Origin: an uncultured Gammaproteobacteria bacterium | GTDB lineage: Bacteria > Pseudomonadota > Gammaproteobacteria > Steroidobacterales > Woeseiaceae | Direction of reading: 5' to 3' | Length of the DNA stretch: 64,000 nucleotides | Assembly: GCA_963800915.1 (NCBI GenBank) | Contig: CAWDCR010000012.1 | Coordinates: 11,255 to 75,254, forward strand | In this document: in pieces, positions 2,380 through 26,775 of the stretch | Layout: each line of letters starts with the position of its first letter | Numbering within the stretch: the stretch's first letter is position 1 | Notes under the pieces: model-generated | Told to the model about the DNA's origin: nothing | The model's input: only the letters and a program-made list of their open reading frames with translations | Database searches by the model: none | Made by a program: the position numbers and the translations under genes

Positions 2380-4637
<2,258 letters not shown>

Positions 4638-4663
4638 GCGATTCGCTGGGCTGACGATCGTGC

Positions 4664-4693
4664 AAGCGCCCCGGCAACGGGGCGCTTTTTTTT
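4664..4693 (+). terminator. Intrinsic terminator after katG
   Basis: AAGCGCCCCG-GCAA-CGGGGCGCTT followed by a T run. Confidence 0.9.
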
Positions 4694-4732
4694 GCGGTTG
4701 CGAATTGTCGTGAGCCGGCACAAAGTCAGCGG

Positions 4733-5341: not shown

Positions 5342-5456
5342 GGGCGAACGGCCGCTGTTTGCCTGGCGCTGCCTGCAATCACAGCCTGACGCGCAACCCC
5401 GCAAGCGCGGCGATGTGGCATCATCACCGCACCGCAAATCGAAGTAGTGCTTGACG

Positions 5457-8044: not shown

Positions 8045-9018
8045 CTGCACGAGCGTCACAAACGGGTTACACGCTGATAGAACTGCTGGTGTCTGTCGGC
8101 ATTGCTGCGCTGTTGCTAACCGGACTGCAGCAGTTGCTCGGCGTCGGCATCGACACGCTCGATATGGTTGAGCAGCGCACCGAGCTGGCCCGGCGGGCGC
8201 GGTTCGCGATGTCACGCATGGTGGATGCAGTGCAGCACAGCGACCGCCTGCTGATTCCGCTGGCCAACAACCCCGCTACGCCGTTTGATGAAAACATTCG
8301 TGAGCAAACCGTGCCCGCCTCGCCGCCACAAACCGGCAGCTTGCTCGCAACGGCAGTACTCGCGTTGACCATTGGTCCCGCCCAGGACATGGACGCCAAC
8401 GGCATTGCCGATGCCGATAACGATGGCGATGGCCTGATTGACGAAGACCTGCCGGCCGACGCCCACAACGACGGCAAGGCCGGTGTGCGGGATTTCGATG
8501 ACGACGGCAATGGCACCAAAGACTTCAACTTTTCGCCGGCCGGCGATGACGACGAGAGCAACGACTTCAAGCAGAGCGAGGATCCCTTCAACGGCATCGA
8601 TGACGACGGCGACGGCAGCATCGATGAGGACAGCGGCGCTGACATGAACGGCGATTTGGCCCCCGGCGTGGCCGGCGTCGATGATGACGGCGACGGCAAC
8701 GTCGATGAGGGCAGCGTCAACGACGACGACGAAGACGGCGCAGTCGACGAGGACTGGTTCGACCCGGTGGTTTTCTATCTCAATGGCAACAGACTTATCG
8801 AGCGTCGTGCCGTCCCGTGGGACGCGAACCTGGACTCAACGCTCAGCGGGCGGGATTTCGTCGAGTCGGACATCGCCGAGAACATCACACTACTTCGCAT
8901 CGAGCGCCTGCCGTTGAGCGGTGGGCAGCAGCTTGTCGATATCACGCTGCAGGTTTCGGATGGCAATGCTGAAACCATCGTTCTGAATACGCGCGTGCGA
9001 TTGGGCGGTGCGCGATGA
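8041..9018 (+). CDS. PilW/GspJ-like minor pilin with Asp-rich Ca-binding-type insert
   Basis: GTG at 8041 overlaps upstream TGA; QTG/YTLIELLVSV; repeated DxDGDGxxDED motifs. Confidence 0.78.
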   Translation: MTARASQTGYTLIELLVSVGIAALLLTGLQQLLGVGIDTLDMVEQRTELARRARFAMSRMVDAVQHSDRLLIPLANNPATPFDENIREQTVPASPPQTGSLLATAVLALTIGPAQDMDANGIADADNDGDGLIDEDLPADAHNDGKAGVRDFDDDGNGTKDFNFSPAGDDDESNDFKQSEDPFNGIDDDGDGSIDEDSGADMNGDLAPGVAGVDDDGDGNVDEGSVNDDDEDGAVDEDWFDPVVFYLNGNRLIERRAVPWDANLDSTLSGRDFVESDIAENITLLRIERLPLSGGQQLVDITLQVSDGNAETIVLNTRVRLGGAR

Positions 9019-12000
9019 GGTCGATGCATCGCAAGCAACAACAGGGTTTTCTGCTCGTTACTGTCATCACGATTCTTGCCATTCTGGCAGCAATCGCGAT
9101 GCTGCTATCCACCAGCACAAGTATGGACAACGTCGTACTTGCTAATCACACAAAAGAAGCCGAACTCAATTACGTAGCGGAAGCCGGTATGGCGCATGCC
9201 AGGTGGCAGCTGGGGCAGAACACCAGCTGCACAAACTACGCCAGCCTGCCCGCAACGTCGTTCGGATCGCACAGCTACTCTGCGTCGTTCACACCGACAA
9301 GCGGTTCTCCGATCAGCGTCTTAGCTGTCGGTTCACTGACGACTGGCGCCGTGCACACGATTTCGCGCGACAACGTCAGAAGTTACGAGACGCCTACTAC
9401 CTTGTTCCTGCAGCCTGGGACCGAGGGCGAAGATGCCGAAATCTGGGCACAGGCGCCCAACAATAACTACGGCGACGCCGCAGAAACCTGGGTGTCGTCC
9501 GCGACCAACGACACGACGCGTTCGCTGCTGCGCTTCAACGTGGATGCAATACCGGCCGGTGTCAAAATTATTGACGCCACTCTGTCGCTGCGTCGCCAGA
9601 GTGGCTCCGGATCGCAGGATCCAGTGTCAGCACATCGCATCACGAATCAGTGGAGCGAAGCCGCGGTGACGTGGAACAGACGTGAAGTCGGCACGAACTG
9701 GGACACGCCTGGCGTCGATTTCGACAGCGCGGCCGTCGCGACAACGCTGGTCGGCCCGCCGAATGGTCGCTTTGAATGGAACATTGCCCCGCTGGTGCAG
9801 GGCTGGGTTGATGGCAGCTTTCCGAACCACGGCGTGGTCTTGGTCGCCGCGACCGCCGGAATGAGTGGTGAGCGCTTTTATACGAGCGATGCGATGGACT
9901 CACCCAGACATCCCAGTCTTGATGTGACATACGCGTGCGAATGCGGCGGCACTTGTACAACCGTCAGCGGCACGATTGATGTGCCGGTTATTAGCGGCAA
10001 TGACGATGCAGAGGAAAATACCACCAACGGCTCCATGTATCTCGACAGCAGTGATCTCGAACTCGCTATCGCCAGTGAGCCAACCGACCTTGTCGGGATT
10101 CGCTTCGTGAACCTGGACATTCCACCGGGTGCGACCATTTCAAACGCGTACCTGCAGTTCCAGGTTGACGAGGCAACGACTGCATCGACTAACCTGGTTG
10201 TTCGTGCGCAGGCTGCAGATGATGCCGGCACGTTTTCAGCAAGTAACTACAATCTCAGCAGCCGTCCGCTTTCCACGGCAGCGGTGAACTGGAGTCCCGT
10301 CGGCTGGCCTGCCGTTGGCGATCGCGGCGAGGATCAACGCACTCCGGACCTGTCTGCCATCATTCAGGAAATTGTGGATCGGCCCGGCTGGGCCAGCGGC
10401 AACGCGCTCGTTATTGTCATCGATGGAACAGGGACTCGCATAGCGGAGTCGTACGAAGGCGACCCGGCAGGCGCGGCCACTTTGCACATCGAATACGGTG
10501 GCGGCAGCGGTGAACCACCCGCCACCCAGAAGGTTCTGTTCGTCGTGGGCGATGTCAGCATGACAGCGGCGGAAATGGCGCACAAAGCTTTGCTCGAATC
10601 CTGGGGATATTCCGTTGAGCTGATTGACGATGGTGCGTCGCAGGCAGACTTCAACGCCGCGGTCTCGAGCAGCAACGTCGTGTTTTTGACCAATGACGTC
10701 ACTGCAAGCAGTGTTGGCAGCAAGCTGGTTGGCGCAACGATCGGCGTTGTTACATCGGAAGACAATCTCTCCGACGAATTCGGCATATCGTCCGGCATCG
10801 CCTGGGAAAGTGGCACGGCGGTGACGATTGATAACAACTCACACTACATCACTTCGCCATTCTCTACTGGCTCGCTAACAATTTTCTCGAGCGGGGAGTC
10901 ACTGGCCTATCTAACCGGCTCGCTCGCTCCTGACCTGAAGACGCTTGCCAGCTCTTCGTCCGGTTTCGGCATAGTGGCCCTGGAAGCGGGTGCGGCGCTG
11001 TACAGTTCCGGCACTGCGGCCGGCCGGCGGGTGCAACTTCCCTGGGGCGGGAACGGCTTCGATCCCGGTCAACTCACTGCCGAAGGTCGCACGCTCCTGC
11101 GTCGCGCGATCGAGTGGGGTGCGGGCGAATCATCGGCGTCGACCGGTCCACTGGCGCACTGGAAGTTCGACGAGACCAGCGGGTCGATCGCTGTGGATTC
11201 CGTCGGAGGTCACGACGGTACGCTGGTCAATGGAACACTGTGGGCTAGCGGCGTCTTCGGCGGCGCAGTTTCCTTCGACGGTGTCAACGACTATGTCGAT
11301 TTGACGTCAGACGCGGAGCTGGACGACGTATTTGTTGGTGGCGCGACTGTGATGGCGTGGATCGAGCCGGCAGGCTGGGGCAACAATGGCTACGGGCGAA
11401 TTTTCGATAAATCCAGTTCGCCGTCCGCGACCGGCAACGGCTGGGCATTGCGTATGAACGTGGACAATGGCGGCCTCAACTTCGGCCAGGGCTTCACGGG
11501 CGGTCGCGGTTGGTGGCGGTTCGCCGAAGGCTCGATCAGTCTTGGCAGCTGGCAGCACATCGCGGTGGCCTACGATGCGAGTTCGACGGCAAACGATCCG
11601 GTGATCTATCTTGATGGTAGCCCGGTTGCGGTCACGAGAGTCGTCGCGCCTTCAGGAGCGATCGCGTCCGACGCGGCGATCAACCTGCATCTCGGCAATC
11701 ATGCGAGTTCCGCTGCGACATTCTTCGACGGCAAGATCGACGATGCACGGATCTATGACCGCATGCTCAGCGCCACCGAGATTGCTGCCGCCGCGGGTGG
11801 TGGTGGCGGTGGCGGCGGTGGTGGCGGTGGCGGTGGCTGCAACGGCGCCTACCGTGACGAGTTCAGCGCCAGGACTTACTCCGGCAGCGACGGCACGCTG
11901 ACCTGGGCCGGGGACTGGATTGAGGTGGGTGAGAGCGATGGCCCTACCTCGGGCGATACGCTGGTGACGACCGATCAGAGCAACTATCAGCTCCGGACCC

Positions 12001-12332
12001 GCGACAACGACAACGGTGGGGAAGGCGTCGAGCGCGAGGCCGACTTGAGCGGTGCAGGCAGCGCCACGCTGAGTTACGACTACCGGCGCCAGTCTCTCGA
12101 TAGCGCGAGCGACTACACCAGCGTCGAGGTTTCGTCGAATGGTGCGTCCGGACCGTGGACGGAACTCACGCGGCACGACGGCACCGGCAACGACTCGAAC
12201 TACGTATTCGCCAGCCACAACATCACCAGCTTTGCCTCGGCCAACACCCGGATCCGCTTCAAAACCTCATCATCGATGGGCGGCTCCGACATCGTCTGGT
12301 TCGACAACATCCAGATCGCCTGCACCCCGTAG
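9015..12332 (+). CDS. PilX/GspK-like pilin fused to multi-domain adhesin (DNRLRE/CBM96-like, DDAEE domain, LamG-like)
   Basis: QQG/FLLVT without Glu5; YVAEAG; EDAEI...NNYG...LLRF...IPAG...VTWN; AHWKFDE...FDGKIDDARIYDR; Gly14 linker; ATGA overlap. Confidence 0.8.
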   Translation: MRSMHRKQQQGFLLVTVITILAILAAIAMLLSTSTSMDNVVLANHTKEAELNYVAEAGMAHARWQLGQNTSCTNYASLPATSFGSHSYSASFTPTSGSPISVLAVGSLTTGAVHTISRDNVRSYETPTTLFLQPGTEGEDAEIWAQAPNNNYGDAAETWVSSATNDTTRSLLRFNVDAIPAGVKIIDATLSLRRQSGSGSQDPVSAHRITNQWSEAAVTWNRREVGTNWDTPGVDFDSAAVATTLVGPPNGRFEWNIAPLVQGWVDGSFPNHGVVLVAATAGMSGERFYTSDAMDSPRHPSLDVTYACECGGTCTTVSGTIDVPVISGNDDAEENTTNGSMYLDSSDLELAIASEPTDLVGIRFVNLDIPPGATISNAYLQFQVDEATTASTNLVVRAQAADDAGTFSASNYNLSSRPLSTAAVNWSPVGWPAVGDRGEDQRTPDLSAIIQEIVDRPGWASGNALVIVIDGTGTRIAESYEGDPAGAATLHIEYGGGSGEPPATQKVLFVVGDVSMTAAEMAHKALLESWGYSVELIDDGASQADFNAAVSSSNVVFLTNDVTASSVGSKLVGATIGVVTSEDNLSDEFGISSGIAWESGTAVTIDNNSHYITSPFSTGSLTIFSSGESLAYLTGSLAPDLKTLASSSSGFGIVALEAGAALYSSGTAAGRRVQLPWGGNGFDPGQLTAEGRTLLRRAIEWGAGESSASTGPLAHWKFDETSGSIAVDSVGGHDGTLVNGTLWASGVFGGAVSFDGVNDYVDLTSDAELDDVFVGGATVMAWIEPAGWGNNGYGRIFDKSSSPSATGNGWALRMNVDNGGLNFGQGFTGGRGWWRFAEGSISLGSWQHIAVAYDASSTANDPVIYLDGSPVAVTRVVAPSGAIASDAAINLHLGNHASSAATFFDGKIDDARIYDRMLSATEIAAAAGGGGGGGGGGGGGGCNGAYRDEFSARTYSGSDGTLTWAGDWIEVGESDGPTSGDTLVTTDQSNYQLRTRDNDNGGEGVEREADLSGAGSATLSYDYRRQSLDSASDYTSVEVSSNGASGPWTELTRHDGTGNDSNYVFASHNITSFASANTRIRFKTSSSMGGSDIVWFDNIQIACTP
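11796..11837 (+). repeat. GGT/GGC repeat encoding a 14-Gly linker
   Basis: 14 consecutive Gly codons before the last domain. Confidence 0.9.
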
Positions 12333-15084: not shown

Positions 15085-15774
15085 ATGCCACGCCAATGCA
15101 GATATTTCCTTCCCGGCATTCCGCAACACGTCGTAACACGCGGCGTAGACAGGCAAGCCGTATTCTTCCACGAGCAGGATTACACGCTTTATCTAGAAGC
15201 ATTGCAGGATGCGGCGGCAGGAAATGATTGTTTGATCCATGCCTATGTCCTGATGACCAATCACGTGCATCTGTTGGTCACGCCAGGACAGGAAAGATCA
15301 TTGCCCCTGATGATGCAGGCAATGGGGAGAAACTACGTTCAGCGATTGAACGTTCGCTACGGCCGAACCGGCACACTTTGGCAGGGACGTTACAAAGCCA
15401 GTCTGGTCCAGGACAGCGGTTACCTGCTGACCTGTCAGCGATACATCGAGCTCAACCCGGTTCGTTCCCGTCTGGTTGCCGCACCCGGCGACTACCCGTA
15501 CTCGAGTTATGCTTACCACGCTGGGGGAAGCGATGACGCGCTGATCACGGCGCACGCTGGCTACCTTGACCTGGCTGTCGACCCGTCAGCGCGGCAACAA
15601 GCCTATCGAAGGCTCTTCCAAGACCTGATTGACGAAGCGTTACTGACCAGGATTCGTAAGGACACCAATGCTTGTGGAGTAATTGGCGATAGTCGTTTCA
15701 AGGAGCAGATAGAAGCGATGTTGGGCCGCACTGTGCCAACCGGCGAGCGTGGCAGGCCAAGGGTGAGTCAATAA
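15085..15774 (+). mobile_element. HUH Y1 tyrosine transposase/nuclease (RAYT-like, IS200/IS605 TnpA superfamily)
   Basis: MPR...PGIPQHVVTRG, YVLMTNHVH (HUH), GTLWQGRY, catalytic YIELNPVR, YPYSSY, C-terminal RGRP. Confidence 0.9.
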
Positions 15775-15830: not shown

Positions 15831-18800
15831 TCAGGCCGTCTTCGCATCCCGCATCGACAGTGATCTTTCGATGCTGATGTAGCCGCTGTTGGCGAGCGCC
15901 AAGGGATCGGCCTGCAGCGCCTGGTAAAGCCTGTCTGCGGAATCGTGCCACTGTTCACCGCGGATGCCGACCCAGGCGTTGCGTTGTTCCTTGGCAAGGT
16001 ACATCGCCGCGTCGGCGACGCCGAGTGCCTGCTCCCAGTTCAGAAGCCCGGGCGCATTCGGCAGAAACGGGAATCCCGCAAAGCCAATCGAACAGCTGGT
16101 GTGTTCAATTCGGCCGTTGCCGACCGAAAAAGCGGTGTCGGCAATGTTCGCGCGCAGGCGCTCCGCCAGCATGCTGGCTTCCGTGTAGGAAGGATCGCGG
16201 CACACGATCAGGAATTCATCGCCACCCCAGCGAATGACGATATCGGATGAGCGGCAGACGCTGTGCAGCACGTCGCGCACCTGCAGCAGTACCCGGTCGC
16301 CGGCAAGGTGTCCGCAGGTATCGTTGATCGGTTTGAAGTTATCCAGATCAACCATGATGAAGACGAGGTTCGGCGTGCTGTCAGAGCCTGTGCGTTGCTT
16401 GCTACGGCGCTCGTACTCCGGTGCGTCTTCCCTGAGCACTTCCTCAAACAGGTAACGGCGATTGTGCAGCCCGGTCAGCGCGTCGGTAAAACTGGCTTCA
16501 CGCAGCCGGTCGTTCGCGTCATGAAGCTCGGAGTTACTTGCGGCAAGATCACTGGTCCTGTCGCTGACCTCCAGTTCAAGGCGTTTGCTGTACTCGGCTT
16601 CACGCTCGAGCTTGCGCTTGTGGAACCGGTAAAGCAGATAGATGGCGCTAACCAGCAGAATAAAGTAGAGCGCGTATGCCGAGGGTCGCAGCCACGGCGG
16701 ATGCGCGACGTTGATCGCAATACTCAGTTCCTCGTCGCTCCAGACGCCATCGCTGTTAGCGCCGCGCACCAGGAATTCGTGGCGCCCGCCCGGCAGGTCG
16801 GTGTAGGTTGCGGTGCGGGTTGTACCGGCCTGAACCCATTCGCGATCGAATCCTTCCAGCTTGTAGGCGTAGCGGTTCCGCGATGGCGCGGTGTATTCCA
16901 GCGCCGCAAACTCGAAGCTGACCATGTCCTCAACGTAATCGAGCGACAGGCCGGAAAGGTATTCATAAGCGACGCCGGTATCGGCCGGCTGGTTGAACTT
17001 GCTGATACCCGTCAGTACCACGCGTGGCGCGATCGCCTTGACCTCGCGGCCGATCGGGTCGAACGCATTGAAACCGTTGTTGCCGCCGAAATAGACGGTA
17101 CCCGAGTGGTCGACGAAGTAGGCGCCGAAGTTGAACTCCTCGCCCTGCAGTCCGTCGCTGACATGAAAGTTGCGCATCTCGCCGCTCGCAGGATCGAAGC
17201 GGCTGATGCCGTAGTTCGTGCTTAACCAGAGTCGGCCCAGGGAGTCAGAGAGAACGCCGTACACGACGTCATTCGATAAACCGTCGGCCTGCGTGATTGA
17301 CGAAAAACCGCCGGGCGCGCTCGCGTTGCCGACACTCGGCAGGAAGCGGTTAAGCCCGGCACGTGTGCCGGCCCACAGGTTGCCGGCCCTGTCCACGTGC
17401 AGCGAGTAGACGGCATTGCTGCTGAGACTGTTGCTTTCGTTCGGATCGAACGTGAAGTGATCCCAGCCACTTTGATCAGCATTGAGTCGATTGAGTCCGC
17501 CGCCGCTGGTCGCAACCCACAGCGCACCCGTCGCATCTTCGACCAGCGCCGTTGCATTCGGGTTGGATAAGGAACCGGGCACCGCCGGATCGTGAGGAAA
17601 ATTGGTGAAGCTGTCGGAGACGCTGTCGTAGCGGCTGACGCCACCGCCGAAGGTGCCGATCCAGACCGTGCCGTCGGCGCCCTTGTACAACGACATGATG
17701 CCGTTCGCGGGGATGGTCCGGGCGTTCTTCGCATCGTGCCTGTAAACCGAGACCTTAGCCGTTAGCGGATTAATTCGATTCAGGCCGCCGTGCATCGTGC
17801 CGGCCCAGATCATGCCATCGTCATCGGTCAGCAACGCCATGACCACATCGTCGCTCAGGCTGTTGGTACCGGCCCGCAGCTGCGTCTTCAGCTCAAGTGC
17901 GGAATCGAGAATCATGATGCCGTTGCCGAAGGTGCCCACCCACAGCTGTCCGTTCTGGTCACGCGTAAACGACGTTATCTTCGGCGTCTGGCTGTTCTGG
18001 TCGCTGGTCTCGGGGCGAAAGTGACCGAACAGCCAGGAGCGCGCGTTCCACTTGTTGATGCCGCCGGTTTTCGTGCCGACCCACAGTACACCGCTGCGGT
18101 CTTCGAAGATCGACGTAACGTAGTTATCGCTGAGGCTGCTCGGGTCGGTAGGGTCGTTGCGGTAGCGGGTGAATGAATCACGCTCGGTGTTCATCAGGTT
18201 CAGGCCGTCATTGGTGCCGACCCAGAGGCGTCCCGCCGAATCCTCGAAGATCGCTTCCACCCGGTTGCTGGAAAGCGAATGCGTATCGGCTTCGTCGTTG
18301 CGCAAAAAATTCGAAGTCACCGCTGGTTTCATCGAGCACGGCAAGTCCATGCAGCGCGGTACCGACGAGCAGCTTGCCGCGATTGTCGCGTCGAATCGCA
18401 AGCACGCGGTTGTCACCGCCTGTCCCGCCTTCCAGCCCGAGCCCGAAGCGCTGCAACTGGCCCGTCGCCGGATCGAGGCGGTCAACGCCTTCGCCGGTAC
18501 CAATCCAGAGGCTGCCATCCGCATCGAGCCAGAGTGCGTGAACCCGGTTGTCACTCAGCGACGCCGGGTTGCCGGCCTCGTGCTTGTAAACATCGACCTT
18601 GCCGCTGGCCGGATCGAGGCGCCGCAGGCCGTCGCGCATCGTGCCGACCCAGATCCAGCCGCGTGGATCTGCGAGTGTCCTGCGCAGGTTGTTGGCACCC
18701 GGTGAATCCGGTTTTTCCGGATCGACACGATAAACAGTCATGTCAATTGGATTGCCGCGGCGTCGCACCAGGCCGCCGCCATCGGTCGACAACCACAGGT

Positions 18801-19239
18801 CACCCGCGGCGTCGACGGCCATGTCGGTAATAAAGTCATTGGGCAAGCTGCGCGGATCGTCGCGCAGGCGCCGCGATACAGTGAAGTCGTAGCCGTCAAA
18901 ACGGTTCAGGCCGCTTTCGGTGGCAAACCACATGAAACCGGATGAGTCCTGCACGATCTGGTTGATGGCGCTCTGCGACAGACCGTCATCGCGGTCGTAG
19001 TGGGCGAAGCGCATCGGTTGCGAAGTCGAAGCCGAAGTCGAGGCTGCAGGTGCTGCGTGCGCCTGCGATCCGCCAAGCGGGTTGCCGGCGGCGAACAGCA
19101 GAATCACAAACGCTGTGACGGCATTCGCCGTCAGCGCGCGTGCGGAATCCAGGCAGCGGCAGGCACGTAACAAAAACGATTCTGCGGCAGCGCTATATCC
19201 GGAAAGATTCCGACGGTTCGACATGCATAGCTCGCCCAA
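15831..19239 (-). CDS. Diguanylate cyclase with periplasmic Reg_prop beta-propellers and Y_Y_Y domain; +1 frameshift in A6 run 18304-18309
   Basis: Repeated SL(S/P)xN...D..G.LW(V/I)GT units; YAYKLEGFD...YTDLPGG; TM; TDALTGLHNRR; RSSD I-site; RWGGDEF. Removing one base gives DFEFLRNDEAD. Confidence 0.88.
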
Positions 19240-19281
19240 CGATAACTAAATGAAATTAGAAAAGAATACGGTCGCCGGGGG

Positions 19282-19297
19282 AGTGATTCATGTCTCA
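19282..19297. promoter_or_regulatory. CRP/Clp-type box upstream of the DGC
   Basis: AGTGA-N6-TCTCA, 8/10 match to TGTGA-N6-TCACA. Confidence 0.5.
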
Positions 19298-19311
19298 ATT
19301 CCGGCCAAATT

Positions 19312-19370
19312 GCGGTGTTCCGCGGTGTTCCGCGGTGTTCCGGGTGTTCCGGGGTGTTTCGGGCTGTTCC
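19312..19370. repeat. ~10-bp tandem repeat GCGGTGTTCC x6 (degenerating)
   Basis: Three exact and three variant units. Confidence 0.85.
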
Positions 19371-19375
19371 GCGGG

Positions 19376-19403
19376 CGGGCGGGTTCTGTCGCGAACCCGC
19401 CCG
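19376..19403 (-). terminator. GC hairpin just after the protease stop (no clear U-tract)
   Basis: CGGGCGGGTTC-N6-GAACCCGCCCG, 11-bp stem. Confidence 0.5.
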
Positions 19404-19419
19404 GACTCCGCCTCGCCGT

Positions 19420-21162
19420 TTATTCCTGGTTTACCCAGGTGTTGATCGACATGGCTTCGGTCAGGCTGTTGGACCACAGGTAGCCGTTGGACCAGAGATA
19501 ACCGTCGGACCAGAGATAGCCGTCAGACCACAGGTAGCCGTCGGACCAGAGGTAGCCGTTCGCATTGGTGCTGCCATCCGTCCACAGATAGCCGTCGGAC
19601 CACAGGTAACCATCGCTCCACAGGTAGCCATCCGACCACAGGTAGCCGTTACCGCCAACGCCGTTGTTGCTCCACAGGTAGCCGTCCAGCCCCATAAGGT
19701 AATAGTTGCCGGCTTCGTCCTGGTTGGCGCGGCCGCCGAAGTGCTTGGTGCCGGCAATGTCCGCTTTAATGTCGAGACCGTTGTTGGCGCAGTCGTGGTT
19801 CCAGTTGTAGACCGCATCGTAGGCGTTAACGAGGCCGGCGCCCTGCTGGAACACGGAGTAGGCGAGGCTGCCATCGGCGTTGGTGGCCGGGCGCGCCGCC
19901 GACATGAGCTTGCACTTGACCGCATCGGGGGAGATGCCGGGTTCCATTTGCAGGATCAGCGCAGCGACACCACTGATCACGGCAGTCGCCTGCGAGGTGC
20001 CGGACATCGTGAAGTACTTGTCGCCGTCATGGTAACTGCTGTGTTCGGTGGCAAGCACGGCAGAATTCTGCATGATGCCGATCATATGGCCGCCCGGTGC
20101 GACGATTTCCGGCTTCACGAAGCCTTCAACGGTCGGACCGGCCGAGCTGAATGTTGCCAGCACGTCGTCGCTGCCGTCAGCCGGCGTGTAGCTGTCGGTC
20201 ATGGCGCCGACGGTAATGACATACGGCACGTTGCCGGGTACGCCAATCGTCTGTGCTGCGGGACCGGTGTTGCCGGCGGATGCGACCACAACAATGCCGG
20301 CATCCCATGCGGCCATGACCGCCTGGTTCAGCGGATCGTCCCAGTAGTGCGAGCGTGCCGGTGCGCTTAACGACATGTTGATGATATCGATGCCGTACTT
20401 CTGGTGATTTGCGACGATCCAGTCGATAGCGCGAATGACGTCTGCGTAGCTGCCCTGGCCATTCTCGCCCAGCGCCGTTACAGGAATCAGTCGGGCACCC
20501 GGCGCGATGCCGTTGTAAGAGCCATTAATGTTACGGCTGCTGGCCGCAATACTGGTGACGTGGGAGCCATGGCCTGACTTGTCAGAGTCAAATGAGGTAG
20601 TGCTGTTTCGATAAACCGTTACCGAATCGTCAATCGCGTTGTAGCTTACCTTCCGGCGGACTTGACCGTAGCGGTCTTGCGCCAACCCTTGGTCGCCCAC
20701 CCACATGCCGGTATCGATGATCGCGATACCGACTGCCCAGCCGTCGATGCCCTGCTCGTGCAGCCGGTTGGCCTCGACCAGCGTCGGGAAGTAGGTTTCC
20801 ACTGCGTGGTTTGTGCCGCCATCAGGAGAAGTCGTGGTGTCGGATCCCTTGCCAGGCTTGCCCGATGCCTCGACAGTCGCGTTGCCGAACAGGCGGCTGA
20901 TCGCAACATGCTTGCGCAGGCGATTCGCCTGTTTCTCTGTCAGGTTAACGGCGACCGCACGAATCACGCTCAGCTCGTGGGTTACCTCGCCGTCGAGCTC
21001 GCTGACAGCGGCAAGCACGGCCTGAAAATCCTGGCCCTGCACGATGTAGCTGGTGCGAACTTCCGGCTCGCTGACGTGCTGCTGGACAAAAAGGCCAGCG
21101 GCAACCGCGAGGGCTGCGCCTAAGACGTAAAGCTTCAGAGGTGTCCAGTAGTTCATCGGCAT
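19420..21162 (-). CDS. Exported S8 subtilisin-like protease with propeptide and C-terminal GYLW hexapeptide repeats
   Basis: N-terminal hydrophobic signal/anchor; triad IAIIDTG, GHGSHV, MSGTSQA; oxyanion SAGN; 10 x (D/N)GYLW(S/T). Confidence 0.92.
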   Translation of the reverse strand: MPMNYWTPLKLYVLGAALAVAAGLFVQQHVSEPEVRTSYIVQGQDFQAVLAAVSELDGEVTHELSVIRAVAVNLTEKQANRLRKHVAISRLFGNATVEASGKPGKGSDTTTSPDGGTNHAVETYFPTLVEANRLHEQGIDGWAVGIAIIDTGMWVGDQGLAQDRYGQVRRKVSYNAIDDSVTVYRNSTTSFDSDKSGHGSHVTSIAASSRNINGSYNGIAPGARLIPVTALGENGQGSYADVIRAIDWIVANHQKYGIDIINMSLSAPARSHYWDDPLNQAVMAAWDAGIVVVASAGNTGPAAQTIGVPGNVPYVITVGAMTDSYTPADGSDDVLATFSSAGPTVEGFVKPEIVAPGGHMIGIMQNSAVLATEHSSYHDGDKYFTMSGTSQATAVISGVAALILQMEPGISPDAVKCKLMSAARPATNADGSLAYSVFQQGAGLVNAYDAVYNWNHDCANNGLDIKADIAGTKHFGGRANQDEAGNYYLMGLDGYLWSNNGVGGNGYLWSDGYLWSDGYLWSDGYLWTDGSTNANGYLWSDGYLWSDGYLWSDGYLWSNGYLWSNSLTEAMSINTWVNQE

Positions 21163-21277
21163 AATTCTCGGTTTGCGAATTGGAGAGACGACTTGGCAGG
21201 TCGCTCAGCGTGAAGCTATTTCACCAATTCGGGCCGGAAAATGGAGGTGTGCAGCGATCGTGCGGGCGGCGGCGGAC

Positions 21278-21293
21278 TGTGACGTGCGTCACA
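21278..21293. promoter_or_regulatory. Perfect CRP/Clp-type box upstream of the protease
   Basis: TGTGA-CGTGCG-TCACA (10/10), intergenic. Confidence 0.75.
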
Positions 21294-21304
21294 TAAGGGC
21301 CTGG

Positions 21305-23116
21305 TTAAATAGCCCCGAAGGCGCGGAAACGCGTGCGCAGCGTGTCGATGCCGATGACCGACGTGTCTGGCACGATAGCAAGATTGTTGGCAATGAAATC
21401 CGGCACCGCGGCTGCCGTCAGGGGCTCGCTGACCAGGAAACCCTGTAACGCATCGCAGCCTTCCCTGCGCAGGAAATCGATTTGCGGAAGGTTTTCAACG
21501 CCTTCGGCAATAACGGTTAGTCCCAGGCTCTTCGCCATGGCGATAGTCGCCGCGCAGACGGCGCGCTCGGGTGAATCGCTTGCGCAGCGCTCGATAAACG
21601 ACCGGTCGATCTTGATCGCCTGGATGGGCAGCCGCGCCAAACGAGCAAGCGAGGAGTAGCCGACGCCAAAGTCATCGATGACGAGGCCGATGCCGATATC
21701 CCTGAGCTTCTCGAGGATCAGCTCGGCATTGCTGGCTCGCGTCAGTGATTTCTCGCCGATCTCCAGTTCGAGCGCGGCGGCCGGCAGTCCCGAGCTTTCC
21801 AGCGTATTAAGCACGATCGCTGCGAGGCCGTCGCGCGAGAACTCGGATTCGGACAGGTTGATGGACACGGGCGGCATGCCCTTGATGTCGCGCCGCCAGC
21901 GTTCCGCCTGGGCACAGGCGGATTCCAGGATCCATTCGCCGAGCGGCCGCATCAGGCCCGACGCCTCGGCGACCGGCAGCACTTCGTCGAGTGCGACAAC
22001 GCCGCGCAGCGGATGTTCCCAGCGCAGCAGGGCCTCAAGGCCCGTAATGCGCCCGGTCCTGAGATCGATGCGCGGCAGGTAACGAAGGCTGAGCTGATTG
22101 TTGTCGATGGCCCAGCCCAGCTCCGACTTTTCGTCGATCCGCTTGACCGCGCGAAAGCGCATCGTGCTCGAATAAAACTCATAGCCATCGTCATTGCGGA
22201 TCGTCGCTTCATCAAGCGCAACGCGCGCGTGATTCAGCAGATCGCCGCCTGAGTCCCCGTCACCCGGGTGCATGGCAATGCCTACGATCGGCTCAATCAG
22301 CAGCTGGTGCTCTTCGAATTCAAGCGGGCTGACGAATGCGACCCGGATGCGGTCGGCGACTTCGCGCAGCGCATCGCGGCTGTCGATATCCTGCAGCACG
22401 ACCATGAACTCTTCGTGATCGAGACGCGTCAGGTCATTCGGGTTCGCTTCTTCGGCGCCATGGCAGCTGTGCCTGCCGTGGCGTCGCAGGCAATCTTCGA
22501 TACGTTGCTTTGCCGTCTTAAGCAAACTGCGGCGCACCGGCTTGCCGAGCCGCTTGGTCAGGCTTGCAAACTGGTCGAGGCCGATCACCATCACCGCCAG
22601 ACCGCGCTCACGAAGCCGGGCTTCGCTGACGGCCGCGTCCAGCAGCAGTTCGGCGCTGTTCGAGATACGCGCCAGCACGGCGGTATTGGAGGCAGACTGA
22701 GCTTCATTGCCGGCAGGAAAGCGCTGCAGGTCGCGGAGCACACCCATGACCAGCGCGCGGCCGGCCACGATCAGCCGCAGCTCGTAACGGCGCGCTTCAG
22801 ATTCAACATCGAACTGGAAAGAAATTTCTGCGCGCGAACGCAGAACCTTGCGGATATTCATCTTGATCAGCCGGGCAACCTCGCCCGGCAGGTCAGCAGT
22901 AATGTCGATGCCGGCTTCCCGCCGCGGACAGAATTCGGGGACCGACGTGTTGCCGGAAACGCTTTCGACAAGCACAGCGCTGTCGGACGTGATAAACGTC
23001 CAGTCAGGCGATGTCAGTGCGGCAGGGCCGTTTGCACTCTGGCTTGTCAGGCGATTCTTCAAGTTGTCCTGTCCCATATATTCCCGAACAAAGCCCGCGT
23101 CATCGGCTGTCGTCAT
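21305..23116 (-). CDS. c-di-GMP phosphodiesterase (degenerate GGDEF + EAL)
   Basis: RLDHEEF in place of GGDEF; EALLRW, SINLS, DDFGVGYSS, IKIDRSF, AEGVE, QGF intact. Confidence 0.88.
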   Translation of the reverse strand: MTTADDAGFVREYMGQDNLKNRLTSQSANGPAALTSPDWTFITSDSAVLVESVSGNTSVPEFCPRREAGIDITADLPGEVARLIKMNIRKVLRSRAEISFQFDVESEARRYELRLIVAGRALVMGVLRDLQRFPAGNEAQSASNTAVLARISNSAELLLDAAVSEARLRERGLAVMVIGLDQFASLTKRLGKPVRRSLLKTAKQRIEDCLRRHGRHSCHGAEEANPNDLTRLDHEEFMVVLQDIDSRDALREVADRIRVAFVSPLEFEEHQLLIEPIVGIAMHPGDGDSGGDLLNHARVALDEATIRNDDGYEFYSSTMRFRAVKRIDEKSELGWAIDNNQLSLRYLPRIDLRTGRITGLEALLRWEHPLRGVVALDEVLPVAEASGLMRPLGEWILESACAQAERWRRDIKGMPPVSINLSESEFSRDGLAAIVLNTLESSGLPAAALELEIGEKSLTRASNAELILEKLRDIGIGLVIDDFGVGYSSLARLARLPIQAIKIDRSFIERCASDSPERAVCAATIAMAKSLGLTVIAEGVENLPQIDFLRREGCDALQGFLVSEPLTAAAVPDFIANNLAIVPDTSVIGIDTLRTRFRAFGAI

Positions 23117-23189
23117 CGGCCCTTGTCATGGGCCCTTGTCATGGGCCCTAGTCATGGGCCCTTGTCATCAGCCCTCGTCATCGGCCATT
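23099..23189. repeat. 13-bp tandem repeat GTCATGGGCCCTT x7 spanning the PDE start
   Basis: Units start at 23099, 23112, 23125, 23138, 23151, 23164, 23177. Confidence 0.88.
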
Positions 23190-23395
23190 GGCGCAGCTCG
23201 TGCTGCCGGTTGCCTTGATGCCACGGCACCGCAAAAAAAGGATCTTTGCCCGGAGGATCAGGTTAACGGCCTTTCGCCGGCCTTTGAGTGACGCAGTTCG
23301 CCCTTTTCCTGCCGTTGCCGGAGCCGTGGCGCGATCCTGCAAACAGAGTGCCCGGGCGGGATGGCATGACACCTGCAAATGTCAGCCGACCCTGC

Positions 23396-25285
23396 TCAGA
23401 TCTCACGATCCGGCACCACCCGCAACGCCAGCAAATCACTCTCGGAGCGAATGATGGGCGAATAGTCGGTGCGGGCACAGGCGCCGGCGTAATTGCCTCC
23501 TGCGGTAAATGTGCAGATCTGGATATTCAGGCCGTCGACCTGCGGTAACGGAAACAGCTCCTGGTACATCAGGTCGCGATTATCGAAAGCACCATCTGAT
23601 TGCTGCAACAGCGTGCTGTCGCGGTCGATCAGGCTGATATTGGAGCCGCAGCGTCCGACGATGGGCTTGACAACATAGCCGGCCGCTTTGAGTTCGTCAT
23701 CCAGTTCGTAGGTTGCGCGCAGCAGGTACGGGTGATTCGGAAACAGCTCCCACAGCACCGGCAGTATCGCCTTGTTGCTCGGAATGAGCGTCCATAGCGG
23801 CTCGAACACCGTGACGTTCTTGCGCAGCAGCACATCGACGAGCCGCGGCGCCCAGTCCTTGCGCCGGCCGGGTTCGTAGCTCGCCAGTCTTGCGTTGTCC
23901 TCCTCGCATTCTTCACGAATCTGATCGAGCGCGGTTTCCCACGCCCAGGTTTTCCAGACCCAGCGAATGGCTTCGCCGTCCGCGTCGAGCATGTTGCCGC
24001 CATCGGCCCACTGCAAGCCGTCAAGGTTTTGCAGCACTTTGCACTTCAGGCCGGCTGCTTCAATCGCCTCCTGCATGAACAGGGCGTGATACGTCTCCTC
24101 GGGATCATCGTCGCGAAGGATGTGCACGAGACCTTGCGCGTCGCTCTCGCGCCACGCGTCGACGAGTCTTTCGTACAGCTCTGCGCCGGGATCGTCGCCG
24201 TCGTCGCAGCCGACGTGCTCAGCCCATTTGCCCTGGATGATCGCGGTTTCCGTGTGGCAGGACGCGGAGTCGGCGTTGTATTCGTACACCTTGATGCCCT
24301 CCGTGGTCATCGCGAAGTCGAGACGCCCGGTGATCATCTGGTTGCGGCGGTTGTTCCAGGACTCGTGAATGCGTGGCCAGATCGACGACGGAATCTTGAA
24401 ACGCGCGAGGCGTTTCTCATCCTGCAGCACGTAATTCGTCGCGTGCAAAAACAGCGCATGCAGTTCGTTCGAAGCACGCTTCAGCCGGTCTTCGCCGGCC
24501 TGCGATATGCGGATGTAGCGATACTGGTCTTCGGGCCGCGCGGACAGGAAGTCGCCATGCATCATCTCGGCATAGGCGGCTTCAACCGGGTTTGCATCGT
24601 TCAGCCAGCTGTTGTCGCTGTCCGGCAGGGACTCGAGCTGCCTGATGTCCATCGCCAGCAGGCGCTGATTAAACTCGGGACGCGAGGCCGCGTACTGTGC
24701 GTCATCCGTTTGCAGCACCCAGCCGATAATCCCGCCGCCGAGTGACGGCGAGCGAATCCAGTACTCACCTTCCGGGCTGGTGCGCGCTTCAATCTCTCGC
24801 GAGTAATTGCAGCCATCGGCCCACGGCCGGTGGCTGTAGTTCTGTTCAGCGATACGCACGCGATCAGGAAACACCTCGGTGACGATCGCGACGTGGCCGG
24901 TGCGTTCGAACTCACCGCCTTCGCCCCAGATCAGCAGGCAGCCGGGTTCCGGCAGGCGTTTCGAGCCGTTTTCAAATGACTGCATCGGCAGGCGCCGGCC
25001 GGTCGCAATCTCGGTGAACTCGGCAAGGTTGAAAATTTCATAGGCCATCGCGACGTCAGCAAAGGTGTAGCCGAAGTTGACGTACAGCCAGCGACGCGCG
25101 AACTCAACGCACTGCCACTTGTAGCCCATGTAGGTGCCATCGAGGTAGCTGCGGTACGAGTGGCGATCCGGGTATTCCTTGTCGTCGGCTGTGTCATAGT
25201 CACTCGAATAAGCGGGCACCTCGCCCGGCGAAATACCAATTACTGTACCAAATGGAACACGCGGCTTTTCCTGCGTCTCAGTCAT
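23396..25285 (-). CDS. gsp: Bifunctional glutathionylspermidine amidase/synthetase
   Basis: CHAP amidase KWQCVEFARR...GHVAI...AEQN; synthetase GRLDF, YEYNADS, WKTWAWE, SNKAIL, GRCGSNI. Confidence 0.93.
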   Translation of the reverse strand: MTETQEKPRVPFGTVIGISPGEVPAYSSDYDTADDKEYPDRHSYRSYLDGTYMGYKWQCVEFARRWLYVNFGYTFADVAMAYEIFNLAEFTEIATGRRLPMQSFENGSKRLPEPGCLLIWGEGGEFERTGHVAIVTEVFPDRVRIAEQNYSHRPWADGCNYSREIEARTSPEGEYWIRSPSLGGGIIGWVLQTDDAQYAASRPEFNQRLLAMDIRQLESLPDSDNSWLNDANPVEAAYAEMMHGDFLSARPEDQYRYIRISQAGEDRLKRASNELHALFLHATNYVLQDEKRLARFKIPSSIWPRIHESWNNRRNQMITGRLDFAMTTEGIKVYEYNADSASCHTETAIIQGKWAEHVGCDDGDDPGAELYERLVDAWRESDAQGLVHILRDDDPEETYHALFMQEAIEAAGLKCKVLQNLDGLQWADGGNMLDADGEAIRWVWKTWAWETALDQIREECEEDNARLASYEPGRRKDWAPRLVDVLLRKNVTVFEPLWTLIPSNKAILPVLWELFPNHPYLLRATYELDDELKAAGYVVKPIVGRCGSNISLIDRDSTLLQQSDGAFDNRDLMYQELFPLPQVDGLNIQICTFTAGGNYAGACARTDYSPIIRSESDLLALRVVPDREI

Positions 25286-25395: not shown

Positions 25396-26775
25396 TCACT
25401 CGGCCATCACGAGTTCCAGTCTTTCCGGATTACGCCAGTGCCCGCCTCTTAATCGCAGCGAATAAACCAGCGCGATCGCGAGGATCAGCACAACGAATGC
25501 AATCCACGAAATTTTCGGCCCCAGCTCGAACACGCGAATGATGAAAAACTGCGCAACCAGCATTGCCCAATGCAATAACACAGAGGCGACCATCAACCAG
25601 CGCGTGTCGCCCGCGCCGCGCAATATGCCGCCGCACACGAGGATCACGGCATCGGCCATCATGTAGCTCGACAGGCCCACCATCATGAAAGCGGACAGCT
25701 CGCGAATGGCGCTGAAGTCGCCACTTGGTGGCGCGAAGACCTCGACAAGGGGGAAGCGAAAGGTAATGTAGATAGCGGCGAGCACGCCGGAATAAACGAG
25801 CGCAACCGCGAAGGCCGCCGTCATAACCTCATCGACACGCGCCATGTCACGCGACCCGACGAAGCGGCCGATCATGCTAATAACGCCGACACTGAGTCCG
25901 ATCATTGGCACGAATGACAGTATGTCCCAGTTAAATACAACGGCAGCCGAGGCTGCTGCCGCGATGCCGTAACCCTGGAACATGAGCAGGAACAGGTTGA
26001 ACGCCGCCACGTTCAGGAACAGCTCGAGTCCGGACGGGAAGCCGAGTCGCCAGAAACGGCGCAGGATTTTTCGATCGAGCGAAAACGAACGCAGCACGGC
26101 AAACTTTTCGCGGTGTTCCTTAGCAAAATAGAAGGCGATGAAAAGTGCGAACGCCAGCACAGTGGCGAACACGGTCGACACACCGGCACCGACGATGCCG
26201 AGTTCCGGGAAACCCAGCTTGCCGAACACCATCACGTAGCTGAGCGGCACGTTGATGAGTAGTCCGAATACATCGCAAATCATCACGACATAGGTGCGGC
26301 CGATACCGGCGAAGTAGGATGACAAACAGACCTTGGCGAGCGTTATCGGCACACCGGCCATCAGGATCAGGTAGTAGGTTCGCTCCAGTTCGACCTGCTC
26401 GGCAGCGTGCCCCATGGTCTCGAACACGCCGGCCACCAGGAACGTGATCAGGCTGAGGAACGGCAGGCTCATCAATGTCATGATCAGGCCCTGCGTGACG
26501 ACCTTCGGGCACTTGCCGGGCTCGCCTGCGCCAAGGTACTGCGCAGCCATCGCGTTCGCGTACGAGAACAGGCCCATGAAAAAGCAGAAGGAGAAGAACG
26601 AGGCCACGCCACCGCCCAGCGCCGATGCCATGTGCACCGGGTCAATCTGCGACATGAAGTAACGATCGGTGAAAATCATTACCGCAAACGTGCCCTGCGA
26701 TACCACCATCGGCAGCGCGAGTCGCAATAGCTCGACCAGCGTTCGCCGGTTCAGGTTTCGATGCAGTGACAGCAC
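25396..26775 (-). CDS. MATE-family efflux transporter
   Basis: LLRLALP; ~12 TM; AQYLGAG; GILRGAGDT. Confidence 0.9.
   Translation of the reverse strand: MLSLHRNLNRRTLVELLRLALPMVVSQGTFAVMIFTDRYFMSQIDPVHMASALGGGVASFFSFCFFMGLFSYANAMAAQYLGAGEPGKCPKVVTQGLIMTLMSLPFLSLITFLVAGVFETMGHAAEQVELERTYYLILMAGVPITLAKVCLSSYFAGIGRTYVVMICDVFGLLINVPLSYVMVFGKLGFPELGIVGAGVSTVFATVLAFALFIAFYFAKEHREKFAVLRSFSLDRKILRRFWRLGFPSGLELFLNVAAFNLFLLMFQGYGIAAAASAAVVFNWDILSFVPMIGLSVGVISMIGRFVGSRDMARVDEVMTAAFAVALVYSGVLAAIYITFRFPLVEVFAPPSGDFSAIRELSAFMMVGLSSYMMADAVILVCGGILRGAGDTRWLMVASVLLHWAMLVAQFFIIRVFELGPKISWIAFVVLILAIALVYSLRLRGGHWRNPERLELVMAE

Follow-up and report, generated by a model that had tools for sequence, protein, structure and literature searches.

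A three-gene locus in which a subtilisin-type (S8) protease with a C-terminal tail of Trp hexapeptides adjoins a c-di-GMP cyclase with a double-propeller/Y_Y_Y sensor appears to be one example of a signalling unit that is conserved and as yet undescribed. The protease is proposed to act at the sensor's input, with the tail most likely acting as the ligand of the propellers, a reading to which comparative sequence analysis gives a probability of roughly one half. The first-pass annotation had proposed a protease-coupled c-di-GMP module; the linkage is conserved, but what stays constant beside the Trp-tailed protease is the double-propeller/Y_Y_Y sensor domain, whatever its output, rather than c-di-GMP enzymes as such. 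It had also known of no characterised system with this architecture, in agreement with literature searches, which found no published description of the protease-sensor pairing or of a Trp-repeat tail on a subtilase.

Gene content of the locus

All three genes lie on the minus strand of the window, the whole 64-kb stretch of DNA that was analysed, and the ORF list confirms the co-orientation originally described, in the order EAL phosphodiesterase, S8 protease and sensor cyclase. Their features are as follows.

21305-23116, minus: cytoplasmic protein of 603 aa with a degenerate GGDEF domain and an EAL domain (GGDEF*-EAL; Pfam EAL E=5.7e-68, weak GGDEF E=6.8e-13)
22406-22420, minus: degenerate GGDEF motif, DHEEF (motif reading)
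22019-22036, minus: EAL motif (motif reading)
21650-21676, minus: DDFGVGYSS motif (motif reading)
21278-21293, no strand assigned: perfect CRP-family palindrome TGTGACGTGCGTCACA, TGTGA-N6-TCACA, in the EAL-S8 intergenic gap
19420-21162, minus: S8 (subtilisin-type) protease, 580 aa, predicted to be exported (Pfam Peptidase_S8, PF00082, E=2.8e-50)
21085-21138, minus: hydrophobic signal or anchor of the protease (residues 9-26)
about 20866-21054, minus: I9-like propeptide of the protease (AF2)
19840-20733, minus: S8 catalytic domain with D150, H198 and S390
19468-19683, minus: C-terminal tail of 12 hexads in a single register, ten GYLW[ST][DN] and two 6-aa spacers
19423-19467, minus: acidic end peptide SLTEAMSINTWVNQE of the protease, family motif LTExxSINxWVxQE
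18208-19239, minus: 5' part of the cyclase, with the first Reg_prop blades (Pfam Reg_prop E=2.8e-21)
19224, minus: likely start ATG of the cyclase
19084-19122, minus: signal or first transmembrane segment (TM1) of the cyclase
18301-18303, no strand assigned: extra base in the cyclase gene, GCGC against GCC in related strains
15831-18554, minus: 3' ORF of the cyclase, its 3' part being 15831-18299 (Pfam Reg_prop 8e-44, Y_Y_Y 5.5e-17, GGDEF 9.4e-34)
16707-16895, minus: Y_Y_Y domain
16629-16679, minus: second transmembrane segment (TM2)
15981-16490, minus: GGDEF domain
16242-16253, minus: RSSD I-site, five residues ahead of GGDEF (RSSD-IVIRW-GGDEF)
16212-16226, minus: GGDEF active-site motif, intact

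The first of these proteins, which has no domain assigned to its N-terminal ~150 aa, was annotated as an EAL enzyme with a dead GGDEF domain, and this is borne out by the replacement of GGDEF with DHEEF. Its translation contains the full set of EAL, N, ExxE, DDFGTGYSS-type, KxD, EGVE and QG motifs, and its best NCBIfam matches are c-di-GMP phosphodiesterases, all under the equivalog cut-offs; it is likely to be an active enzyme of this type. Similarly, the Peptidase_S8 match and N-terminal hydrophobic segment of the second protein support its description as an exported subtilase. The D150/H198/S390 triad and the oxyanion Asn, N298, are invariant in an alignment of 69 homologs, and two Cys are near-invariant. 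AF2 pLDDT is >90 across the propeptide and catalytic domain, with residues 37-99 forming a confident beta-alpha-beta module, for which there is no Pfam I9 match at E<0.01. The closest solved structure is that of Tk-SP (3afg; E=2.4e-52, residues 32-456).

The third gene encodes two sets of Reg_prop blades, a Y_Y_Y domain, a transmembrane helix and GGDEF, the last being the sole output domain according to Pfam. An intact ortholog, L032, matches the sensor domain of BT4663 (4a2l) with E=1.7e-105, and 3v9f over residues 37-809. The cyclase had been described as intact, which holds for its GGDEF and RxxD motifs and its Reg_prop/Y_Y_Y sensor, but not for its reading frame, as the assembled gene consists of two overlapping ORFs, probably by error. 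The 5' frame ends after GDFEFF (18304-18321), and the two ORFs join only once one base at 18301-18303 is removed. All three contigs bridging this site (two in run X2 and one in X5, from two other studies) are without the extra base, and the ortholog in the closest relative, G007, is in frame, with 73% identity over 310 aa to the 5' part of the cyclase; together these point to a probable consensus error in the assembly. It is doubtful that the gene is broken in the organism itself and the module decaying here, despite the presence of the extra base in the assembled sequence and the ending at this site of contigs from the best-holding run, X1, which could mean mixed alleles. Against this stand the bridging contigs, the loose ends of the X1 contigs, which also appear to be one base shorter, and the retention of full domain scores by both halves, which contain no further stops. 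Programmed frameshifting was rejected, since relatives are in frame.

The genome, 2.85 Mb in size, has 21 matches to the GGDEF domain, one Y_Y_Y gene and one Trp-tailed S8 protease. As the latter two adjoin, each being the only one of its kind, the pairing here is more than would be expected by chance. The protease stop and cyclase start are separated by ~180 nt, and terminator- or promoter-like signals between the three genes were not above shuffle expectation. The flanking genes, encoding a Gsp synthetase, a MATE protein, a Y1 transposase and a TPR protein, are not kept beside the module in relatives.

The Trp-repeat tail and its sensor partner

The spacers between the tail units are NGVGGN and GSTNAN. 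The codons of the units vary at synonymous sites, for instance AGC against TCN for Ser, such that the unit is kept at the peptide level while the codons vary. The tail falls outside every Pfam and NCBIfam model and has a pLDDT of 25-33 when modelled by AF2 with an alignment and, when modelled alone, forms a low-confidence series of four-residue strands (mean pLDDT 55.6, pTM 0.31). Matches to the tail in the ESM Atlas were short hypothetical proteins only, some with a minority Hexapep label, and serve as a lead only. The protease is not a candidate RTX/type I secretion substrate, as it has no GGxGxDxUx nonapeptides, the period is six with Trp in each unit, and an N-terminal hydrophobic segment is present.

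Among the fetched loci, 173 of 180 homologs have at least four Trp hexapeptide units. The modal tail size is nine units (51/139), and the hexad register is strict in 124/139, features that could also mark a domain with a structural or binding role instead of a precursor of peptides. Units specific to particular lineages include GYLWSD, GFVWSD and SMLWAD. The homologs comprise two types, A and B, which are ~40% identical and differ in their termini, the WVxQE-like end being found in 124/139 type A homologs against 1/34 of type B; yet within one locus both carry the same tail unit. The minimum Hamming distance between A and B units is 0.375 within a locus and 2.3 between loci (permutation p<1e-4, 8 loci). 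Gene conversion was rejected as the basis of this sharing, the longest shared DNA runs of 18-27 nt being equal to background. One locus in Thiocystis violacea has both two unit types and two sensors. Unit distance was correlated with sensor distance in a partial Mantel test (r=0.19, p=0.0125), but this was set aside as support because the correlation is weak and confounded by phylogeny. No stand-alone repeat peptides were found in ~150 loci, where the candidates were fragments of tails, antisense frames and a single 55-aa relic (L114).

The module is defined by an S8 protease with at least four in-register Trp hexapeptides that adjoins a Reg_prop sensor belonging to the linked clade described below; both are present in the window. 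Across the order (61 genomes), a Y_Y_Y gene is present in all 19 genomes with a Trp-tailed protease, compared to 14 of the 42 others. In named genomes, a propeller sensor accompanies the protease at 33 of 42 informative loci and is missing from nine, a sensor-less locus being counted only if at least 5 kb was present on either side. These 42 loci span Pseudomonadota, Acidobacteriota and Gemmatimonadota. The linkage of protease homologs to c-di-GMP genes, the absence of which had been named as counting against the original proposal, is clearly kept across orders and phyla. The same-strand clusters EAL-S8-DGC and EAL-EAL-DGC-S8' recur, the S8' gene of the latter starting 12-16 nt past the cyclase stop, and an EAL gene is also present in 27/32 linked loci of the GGDEF type. 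Some loci have up to eight tandem proteases beside one sensor, while orphan copies of the protease adjoin housekeeping genes.

The linkage follows the sensor domain. In a tree of these domains, 46 of the 49 rows linked to a protease fall within one clade of 52, and the linkage label changes nine times on the tree, against 22.2 times when shuffled, with none of 500 shuffles as low. The sensor of the window is nested in a 12-row clade with 99% support, 11 rows of which are linked. A few members of the linked clade (L072, L073 and L167) are without a nearby protease. By contrast, 20 further Reg_prop/Y_Y_Y sensors from these genomes all lack an S8 gene in their vicinity. The outputs attached to sensors of the linked clade comprise GGDEF, GGDEF-EAL, a HisKA-HATPase-REC-Hpt hybrid kinase and a PAS-sigma54 AAA+ activator. 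Sensors of this clade are widely distributed among sediment bacteria (Woeseiaceae, Chromatiaceae and Acidobacteriota), and the module has two cultured carriers, Thiocystis violacea DSM 208 and Thalassomonas sp. RHCl1.

A CRP-type box upstream of the protease gene

The palindrome at 21278-21293, the near edge of which is 116 nt upstream of the protease ATG, is the only zero-mismatch match to the CRP-type box within the window. Such boxes, with no more than one mismatch, precede 47 of 113 gammaproteobacterial S8 genes of the family (42%), against a background of about 1.7% of random 260-nt windows, and are also carried upstream of orphan protease copies. Perfect boxes are lacking before the other two genes, the best cyclase site having two mismatches, which is background, and the EAL gene having none with two or fewer.

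The box resembles the sites of cAMP-CRP/Vfr regulons, and the genome encodes a CRP/Vfr-like protein in which the recognition helix is kept. This protein matches E. coli CRP and Vfr with E of about 1e-79, and Clp (3iwz) with 6.5e-62. E. coli CRP and Vfr are thus nearer to it than Clp, and a loop through a c-di-GMP-responsive regulator of the type of Xanthomonas Clp is not favoured.

Candidate roles of the protease and related systems

The swapping of outputs within the linked clade, along with the locus-specific unit shared by divergent paralogs, fits the protease or its tail feeding the input of the sensor. Both protease and sensor have putative export signals in their translations, and these, along with the two near-invariant Cys of the protease, speak for a shared location. 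In the proposed mechanism, the Sec-exported protease would carry its tail of identical Trp hexapeptides into the periplasm, where the propellers would bind it, either intact or as short peptides freed by the protease itself. Occupancy of the propellers would set cyclase activity through the single transmembrane helix, with the EAL protein removing the product and so resetting the c-di-GMP pool. A CRP-family regulator would additionally control the protease gene in Gammaproteobacteria. A narrower version, put forward only tentatively, is that the tail is a self-encoded ligand, ~ten identical hexapeptides read by a dedicated clade of double-propeller receptors, with the protease itself perhaps cutting the hexapeptides out. 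Counting against the tail as a ligand, those relatives of the sensor domain with a solved structure, from Bacteroides HTCS (4a2l), are known to bind glycans and not peptides. Orphan copies of the protease, the few clade sensors without one nearby, the lack of stand-alone repeat peptides in the loci and the broken cyclase of the assembly also weigh against the proposed mechanism.

To our knowledge, only a minority of the periplasmic sensor domains attached to c-di-GMP enzymes have a known signal, and the Reg_prop/Y_Y_Y sensor fold is so far known for glycans only. For the double-propeller clade, comparative genomics provides a concrete candidate input, namely the protease encoded beside the sensor, with its lineage-specific tail of Trp peptides. 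Should the tail prove to be the ligand, this fold would gain its first peptide ligand and diderm bacteria a novel form of peptide signalling, a Gram-negative channel of lineage-specific 'words' wired to c-di-GMP, phosphorelays or sigma-54 transcription. The cultured carriers make the question open to bench work.

An alternative, considered unlikely, is that the protease digests external or matrix (glyco)proteins, the fragments of which are bound by the propellers, while the Trp tail serves just to attach the enzyme to a polymer or the cell surface. Along its entire length the sensor domain shows homology to the sensors of Bacteroides HTCS, which read the breakdown products of neighbouring hydrolases; glycan binding is common among aromatic repeats, batteries of up to eight proteases accompany a single sensor, and CRP control suggests a nutritional input. 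However, the occurrence of the same unit in divergent paralogs, and of different units between loci, is unexplained by this unless the target of the anchor is itself lineage-specific, and the cyclase output gives no direct route to induction of the enzyme genes. If proteolysis products were indeed sensed, extracellular protein degradation would be tied to the attach-or-swim decision in dominant marine-sediment organisms.

It is distinctly unlikely that the protease is solely an effector, for example in matrix remodelling or dispersal, that is co-expressed with the sensor, c-di-GMP and CRP, or regulated by them, and does not feed back to the sensor. Such an output role is consistent with the operon-like spacing of the genes, the conserved box upstream of protease genes, including orphan copies, and the response-regulator-GGDEF-sigma54 activators that adjoin the module in Thiocystis and Thalassomonas. 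It would not account for the locus-specific tail unit, nor for linkage following one sensor-domain clade whatever the output, when propeller sensors outside that clade lack it despite having GGDEF-EAL outputs too. Very unlikely is regulated proteolysis, in which the tail docks the protease on the propellers and cleavage of the sensor or a partner switches the cyclase irreversibly, reversing LapG-like logic: both proteins are periplasmic or exported, their genes are tightly linked and LapD/LapG is a precedent for a c-di-GMP circuit with a periplasmic protease, but destruction of the receptor sits badly with 5-8 proteases per sensor.

Several characterised systems come close to the module. Bacteroides HTCS (BT4663, 4A2L/4A2M; 3V9F, 3OTT) share the double Reg_prop propeller and Y_Y_Y domain, and in both cases the sensor gene adjoins those of exported hydrolases. 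HTCS bind glycan fragments and combine HK-REC-AraC signalling within one protein. The module differs in having a subtilase with a Trp-repeat tail as the neighbour and GGDEF as the output, or elsewhere a kinase or sigma-54 activator; as its output is GGDEF only, without HisKA-HATPase-REC-AraC, the cyclase is a homolog of the sensor domain and not an HTCS. Likewise, LapD/LapG of Pseudomonas fluorescens couples a c-di-GMP circuit to a periplasmic protease. LapG is a cysteine protease and LapD a c-di-GMP receptor with degenerate GGDEF-EAL domains and inside-out signalling, whereas the locus here has a serine S8 protease and a membrane cyclase with propellers. Membership of this system was rejected, the NCBIfam LapD model having a cut-off of 1020 bits and giving scores here of 80.9 (EAL protein) and 34.7.

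An S8 protease and an exported, repeated or short Trp-containing peptide are also common to Bacillus Phr/CSF (subtilisin, Epr, Vpr) and yeast alpha-factor (Kex2), the precursor of the latter having tandem identical units. There, separate genes encode precursor and protease, and RRNPP proteins or GPCRs act as receptors, whereas in the present module the protease itself bears the repeats and the candidate receptor is a periplasmic propeller. Tk-SP of Thermococcus kodakarensis (3AFG, 9UES), whose propeptide and catalytic domain are the nearest with a solved structure, has no known sensor partner, unlike the S8 protease here, and its C-terminal extension is a folded domain rather than a series of Trp hexapeptide repeats.

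Composition and integrity of the module

The region 15831-23116 holds three genes, all on the minus strand, which are listed here from the most upstream to the downstream gene together with a palindrome lying ahead of the second:

21305-23116, minus strand: GGDEF*-EAL gene, 603 aa, with a strong EAL and a weak GGDEF domain (Pfam); most upstream
21278-21293: perfect TGTGA-N6-TCACA palindrome, 116 nt upstream of the protease start
19420-21162, minus strand: S8 protease gene, 580 aa, Peptidase_S8 E=2.8e-50 (Pfam); middle
18208-19239 and 15831-18554, minus strand: sensor cyclase gene, with Reg_prop repeats, Y_Y_Y, one TM helix and a GGDEF domain; downstream

The domains and motifs agree with the first-pass annotation, which had described a co-oriented EAL enzyme with dead GGDEF, subtilase and GGDEF cyclase with an RxxD I-site. 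The GGDEF motif of the EAL protein reads DHEEF and its EAL, DDFGVGYSS, EGVE and QG motifs are intact; the protease shows a hydrophobic segment at its N-terminus, a module resembling a propeptide, and the D150/H198/S390 triad; and the cyclase carries RSSD five residues ahead of GGDEF.

The cyclase had also been called intact, which does not hold for the assembled gene: it is split into two overlapping ORFs by one extra base, and removing one base from GCGC at 18301-18303 rejoins the frames. When contigs from four public runs, sediment and marine, were compared at this site, the bridging contigs from two studies (2/2 from run X2 and 1/1 from X5) lacked one base exactly there; those of X1 end at the site, their loose ends appearing, as printed, to read the shorter form. 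In the closest relative (G007), whose protease is 86% identical to that of the window, the cyclase ortholog is in frame. The extra base is therefore judged a probable consensus error, a strain-specific pseudogene being the less probable alternative, and the window copy is in other respects an ordinary member of the module.

A Y1_Tnp gene of the IS200-like/REP-associated tyrosine transposase family (15085-15774, plus strand; Pfam E=1.2e-13) lies directly downstream of the cyclase, and the product of 9015-12332 (plus strand), 1105 aa long, combines CBM96, Disaggregatase-repeat and Laminin_G_3 domains. Upstream are genes for a CHAP and GSP_synth protein of the glutathionylspermidine synthetase/amidase type (23396-25285, minus strand) and a MATE transporter (25396-26775, minus strand), neither of which is kept beside the module in the relatives examined.

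Conservation and the constant partner

The source genome, a 2.85 Mb MAG of 13 contigs that is 78% complete, has 21 GGDEF-domain matches, one Y_Y_Y gene and one protease with a Trp-hexapeptide tail, and its sole propeller sensor and sole tailed protease adjoin each other. Source names of its nearest homologs put it in Woeseiaceae. At about one GGDEF gene per 136 kb, such genes would be expected to flank a given gene on both sides with a frequency of roughly 1e-4 by our own estimate.

The module is real and conserved. In the order to which the genome belongs, 19/61 genomes carry the protease (E<=1e-60), and a Y_Y_Y gene is present in 19/19 carriers versus 14/42 others. The wider flanks show two recurring layouts, each on a single strand. 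Type A has the window's order, EAL-S8-sensor cyclase (L032, L044), or in variants the S8 gene ahead of a sensor whose output is a GGDEF-EAL fusion (L041, L053, L054). Type B runs EAL-EAL-sensor cyclase-S8' (L069, L071, L074-L076, L078-L083), where S8' shares only ~40% identity with the window protease and begins 12-16 nt past the cyclase stop. A locus of the same genus (L062, genome G004) combines the window's gene order with a second-subfamily protease (40% identical) between EAL and sensor. In another same-genus genome (L031; G001:C64, about 4165-5898) the protease ortholog is broken by an in-frame TAG, and the sensor is absent within the 12-kb contig.

When each species was scanned through a single genome, 78 loci emerged, of which 33 have the propeller sensor, 36 are too short to judge and nine lack it although 5 kb or more is available to either side. 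Among the carriers are Woeseiaceae, Chromatiaceae (Thiocystis violacea DSM 208, L114), Thalassomonas sp. RHCl1 (L162), Halieaceae, Lysobacterales, many Acidobacteriota and one Gemmatimonadota MAG; L114 and L162 represent cultured strains. Several loci have two to eight tandem proteases beside a single sensor, and orphan copies are found amid housekeeping genes. Arrays of 5-8 tandem Trp-tailed S8 paralogs occur at L136, L142, L145, L131 and L162, with two unit types alternating along the array at L145 and L162. A GGDEF-sigma54 activator of ~1000 aa adjoins the module in L114 and L162, a REC domain being detected in L162 only.

The outputs of the sensors beside the protease are GGDEF, GGDEF-EAL, HisKA-HATPase-REC-Hpt or PAS plus a sigma-54 AAA+ module. 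In a tree of 76 periplasmic sensor domains, 49 of them linked (with a tailed protease nearby) and one (L170) from the unpublished genome G051, a single clade of 52 (support 94) holds 46/49 linked rows and all four output types. The linked label requires 9 changes on this tree versus 22.2 when shuffled, and 0/500 shuffles were as low. By comparison, the protease was nearby in 0/20 other Reg_prop/Y_Y_Y sensors of the same genomes (0/19 without L170), among them 11 with GGDEF-EAL outputs that group tightly on the tree; G051 enters into no other result. Since outputs swap inside the linked clade and the control sensors lack the protease, the linkage is to a particular sensor domain and not to c-di-GMP enzymes; from this we infer that functional contact of the protease lies on the periplasmic (input) side of the sensor. 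The proposed association with c-di-GMP genes is conserved across loci, but the constant partner is the sensor domain, and outputs vary. An EAL gene is also present in 27/32 linked GGDEF-type loci. In two Pseudomonadota MAGs with no propeller sensor found within range, a stand-alone EAL gene (L130:11576-12454, 292 aa) or an EAL tblastn match (L143) directly follows the tailed protease.

The protease tail and a CRP-type box

The last 87 residues of the window protease consist of twelve hexads in one register, namely ten GYLW[ST][DN] units and two 6-aa spacers, followed by a 15-aa acidic end peptide. The units use different synonymous codons, serine being encoded by AGC in some cases and TCN in others, so it is the peptide that is conserved and not the DNA. 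At least four in-register units are present in 173/180 protease homologs of the fetched loci, and a tail of this kind ends both subfamilies. In type A the modal tail has 9 units (range 4-18), with a single register in 124/139 and a WVxQE end in 124/139. No Pfam or NCBIfam model covers the tail; AF2 models the propeptide and catalytic domain confidently and the tail at pLDDT 25-33, and the tail folded alone gives a low-confidence row of 4-residue strands.

Units differ among loci (GYLWSD, GFVWSD, GYLWTN, SMLWAD, SYVWGR and others) and are common to paralogs of one locus, even across subfamilies A and B. Within a locus the minimum Hamming distance is 0.375, as against a mean of 2.3 between loci (permutation p<1e-4, 8 loci). 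Recent gene conversion was rejected as the source of this sharing because the DNA runs common to same-locus tails (18-27 nt) are no longer than those found when unrelated loci that use one and the same unit are compared (median 20).

The window contains no perfect match other than the palindrome upstream of the protease. Within 250 nt upstream of 157 protease genes in fetched loci, a perfect box was found in 28 (background 0.9%) and one with at most one mismatch in 48 (background 1.7%). Boxes with 0-1 mismatch were all gammaproteobacterial (47/113; loci include L032, L035, L062, L094, L100 and L102), with 0/42 among Acidobacteriota protease genes. The protease genes of this lineage, whether linked or orphan, resemble a CRP-family regulon. 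The genome's CRP homolog keeps the recognition helix and matches E. coli CRP and Vfr more closely than Xanthomonas Clp, so a c-di-GMP-responsive Clp loop is not supported.

Proposed mechanism and known systems

Homology to the sensor domains of Bacteroides hybrid two-component sensors extends over the full length of the domain (4a2l, E=1.7e-105), but their HK-REC-AraC output is missing here. Tk-SP (3afg) is closest to the protease, but its C-terminus differs. The module does not belong with LapD/LapG, scoring 80.9 bits against a LapD cut-off of 1020 and having a serine protease where LapG is a cysteine protease. Phr/subtilisin and alpha-factor/Kex2 are functional analogies only. A search of the published literature found no description of the protease-sensor pairing or of the tail, in keeping with the earlier statement that no characterised system is known to have this architecture. 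Newly described here are the type A and B layouts in Woeseiaceae, unit sharing across subfamilies that gene conversion does not account for, the sensor-clade tree and its negative control, the CRP-box regulon and the one-base defect of the window copy; the linkage, the swapping of outputs, the conservation of the tail and the tandem batteries were each derived on independent loci.

As for mechanism, we infer (probability about 0.5) that the protease would feed the sensor's input, most likely with the propellers binding the Trp-repeat tail, intact or as released peptides, and that the cyclase and EAL protein would then act as a make-and-break pair for c-di-GMP. The preferred number of units and the strictly kept register would suit a structural or binding module no less than a precursor, and solved homologs of the sensor domain bind glycans. 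A sensor that reads proteolysis products, as in the Bacteroides systems, with the tail serving as an anchor, is a weaker candidate; the sharing of units within loci sits more readily with tail binding. Somewhat less likely still, the protease may be a co-regulated effector only, which would suit the orphan copies and their common box and would leave the confinement of linkage to one sensor clade to be explained. Cleavage of the sensor itself by the protease, for all the conserved proximity of the two, is improbable.

In the Thiocystis locus, one kinase sensor and one cyclase sensor accompany two proteases whose units differ. Upstream of its first protease gene, a 55-aa open frame (L114:7737-7796, plus strand) with two tail-like units and a WVNQE end motif may be either a protease-tail relic or a small stand-alone tail peptide.
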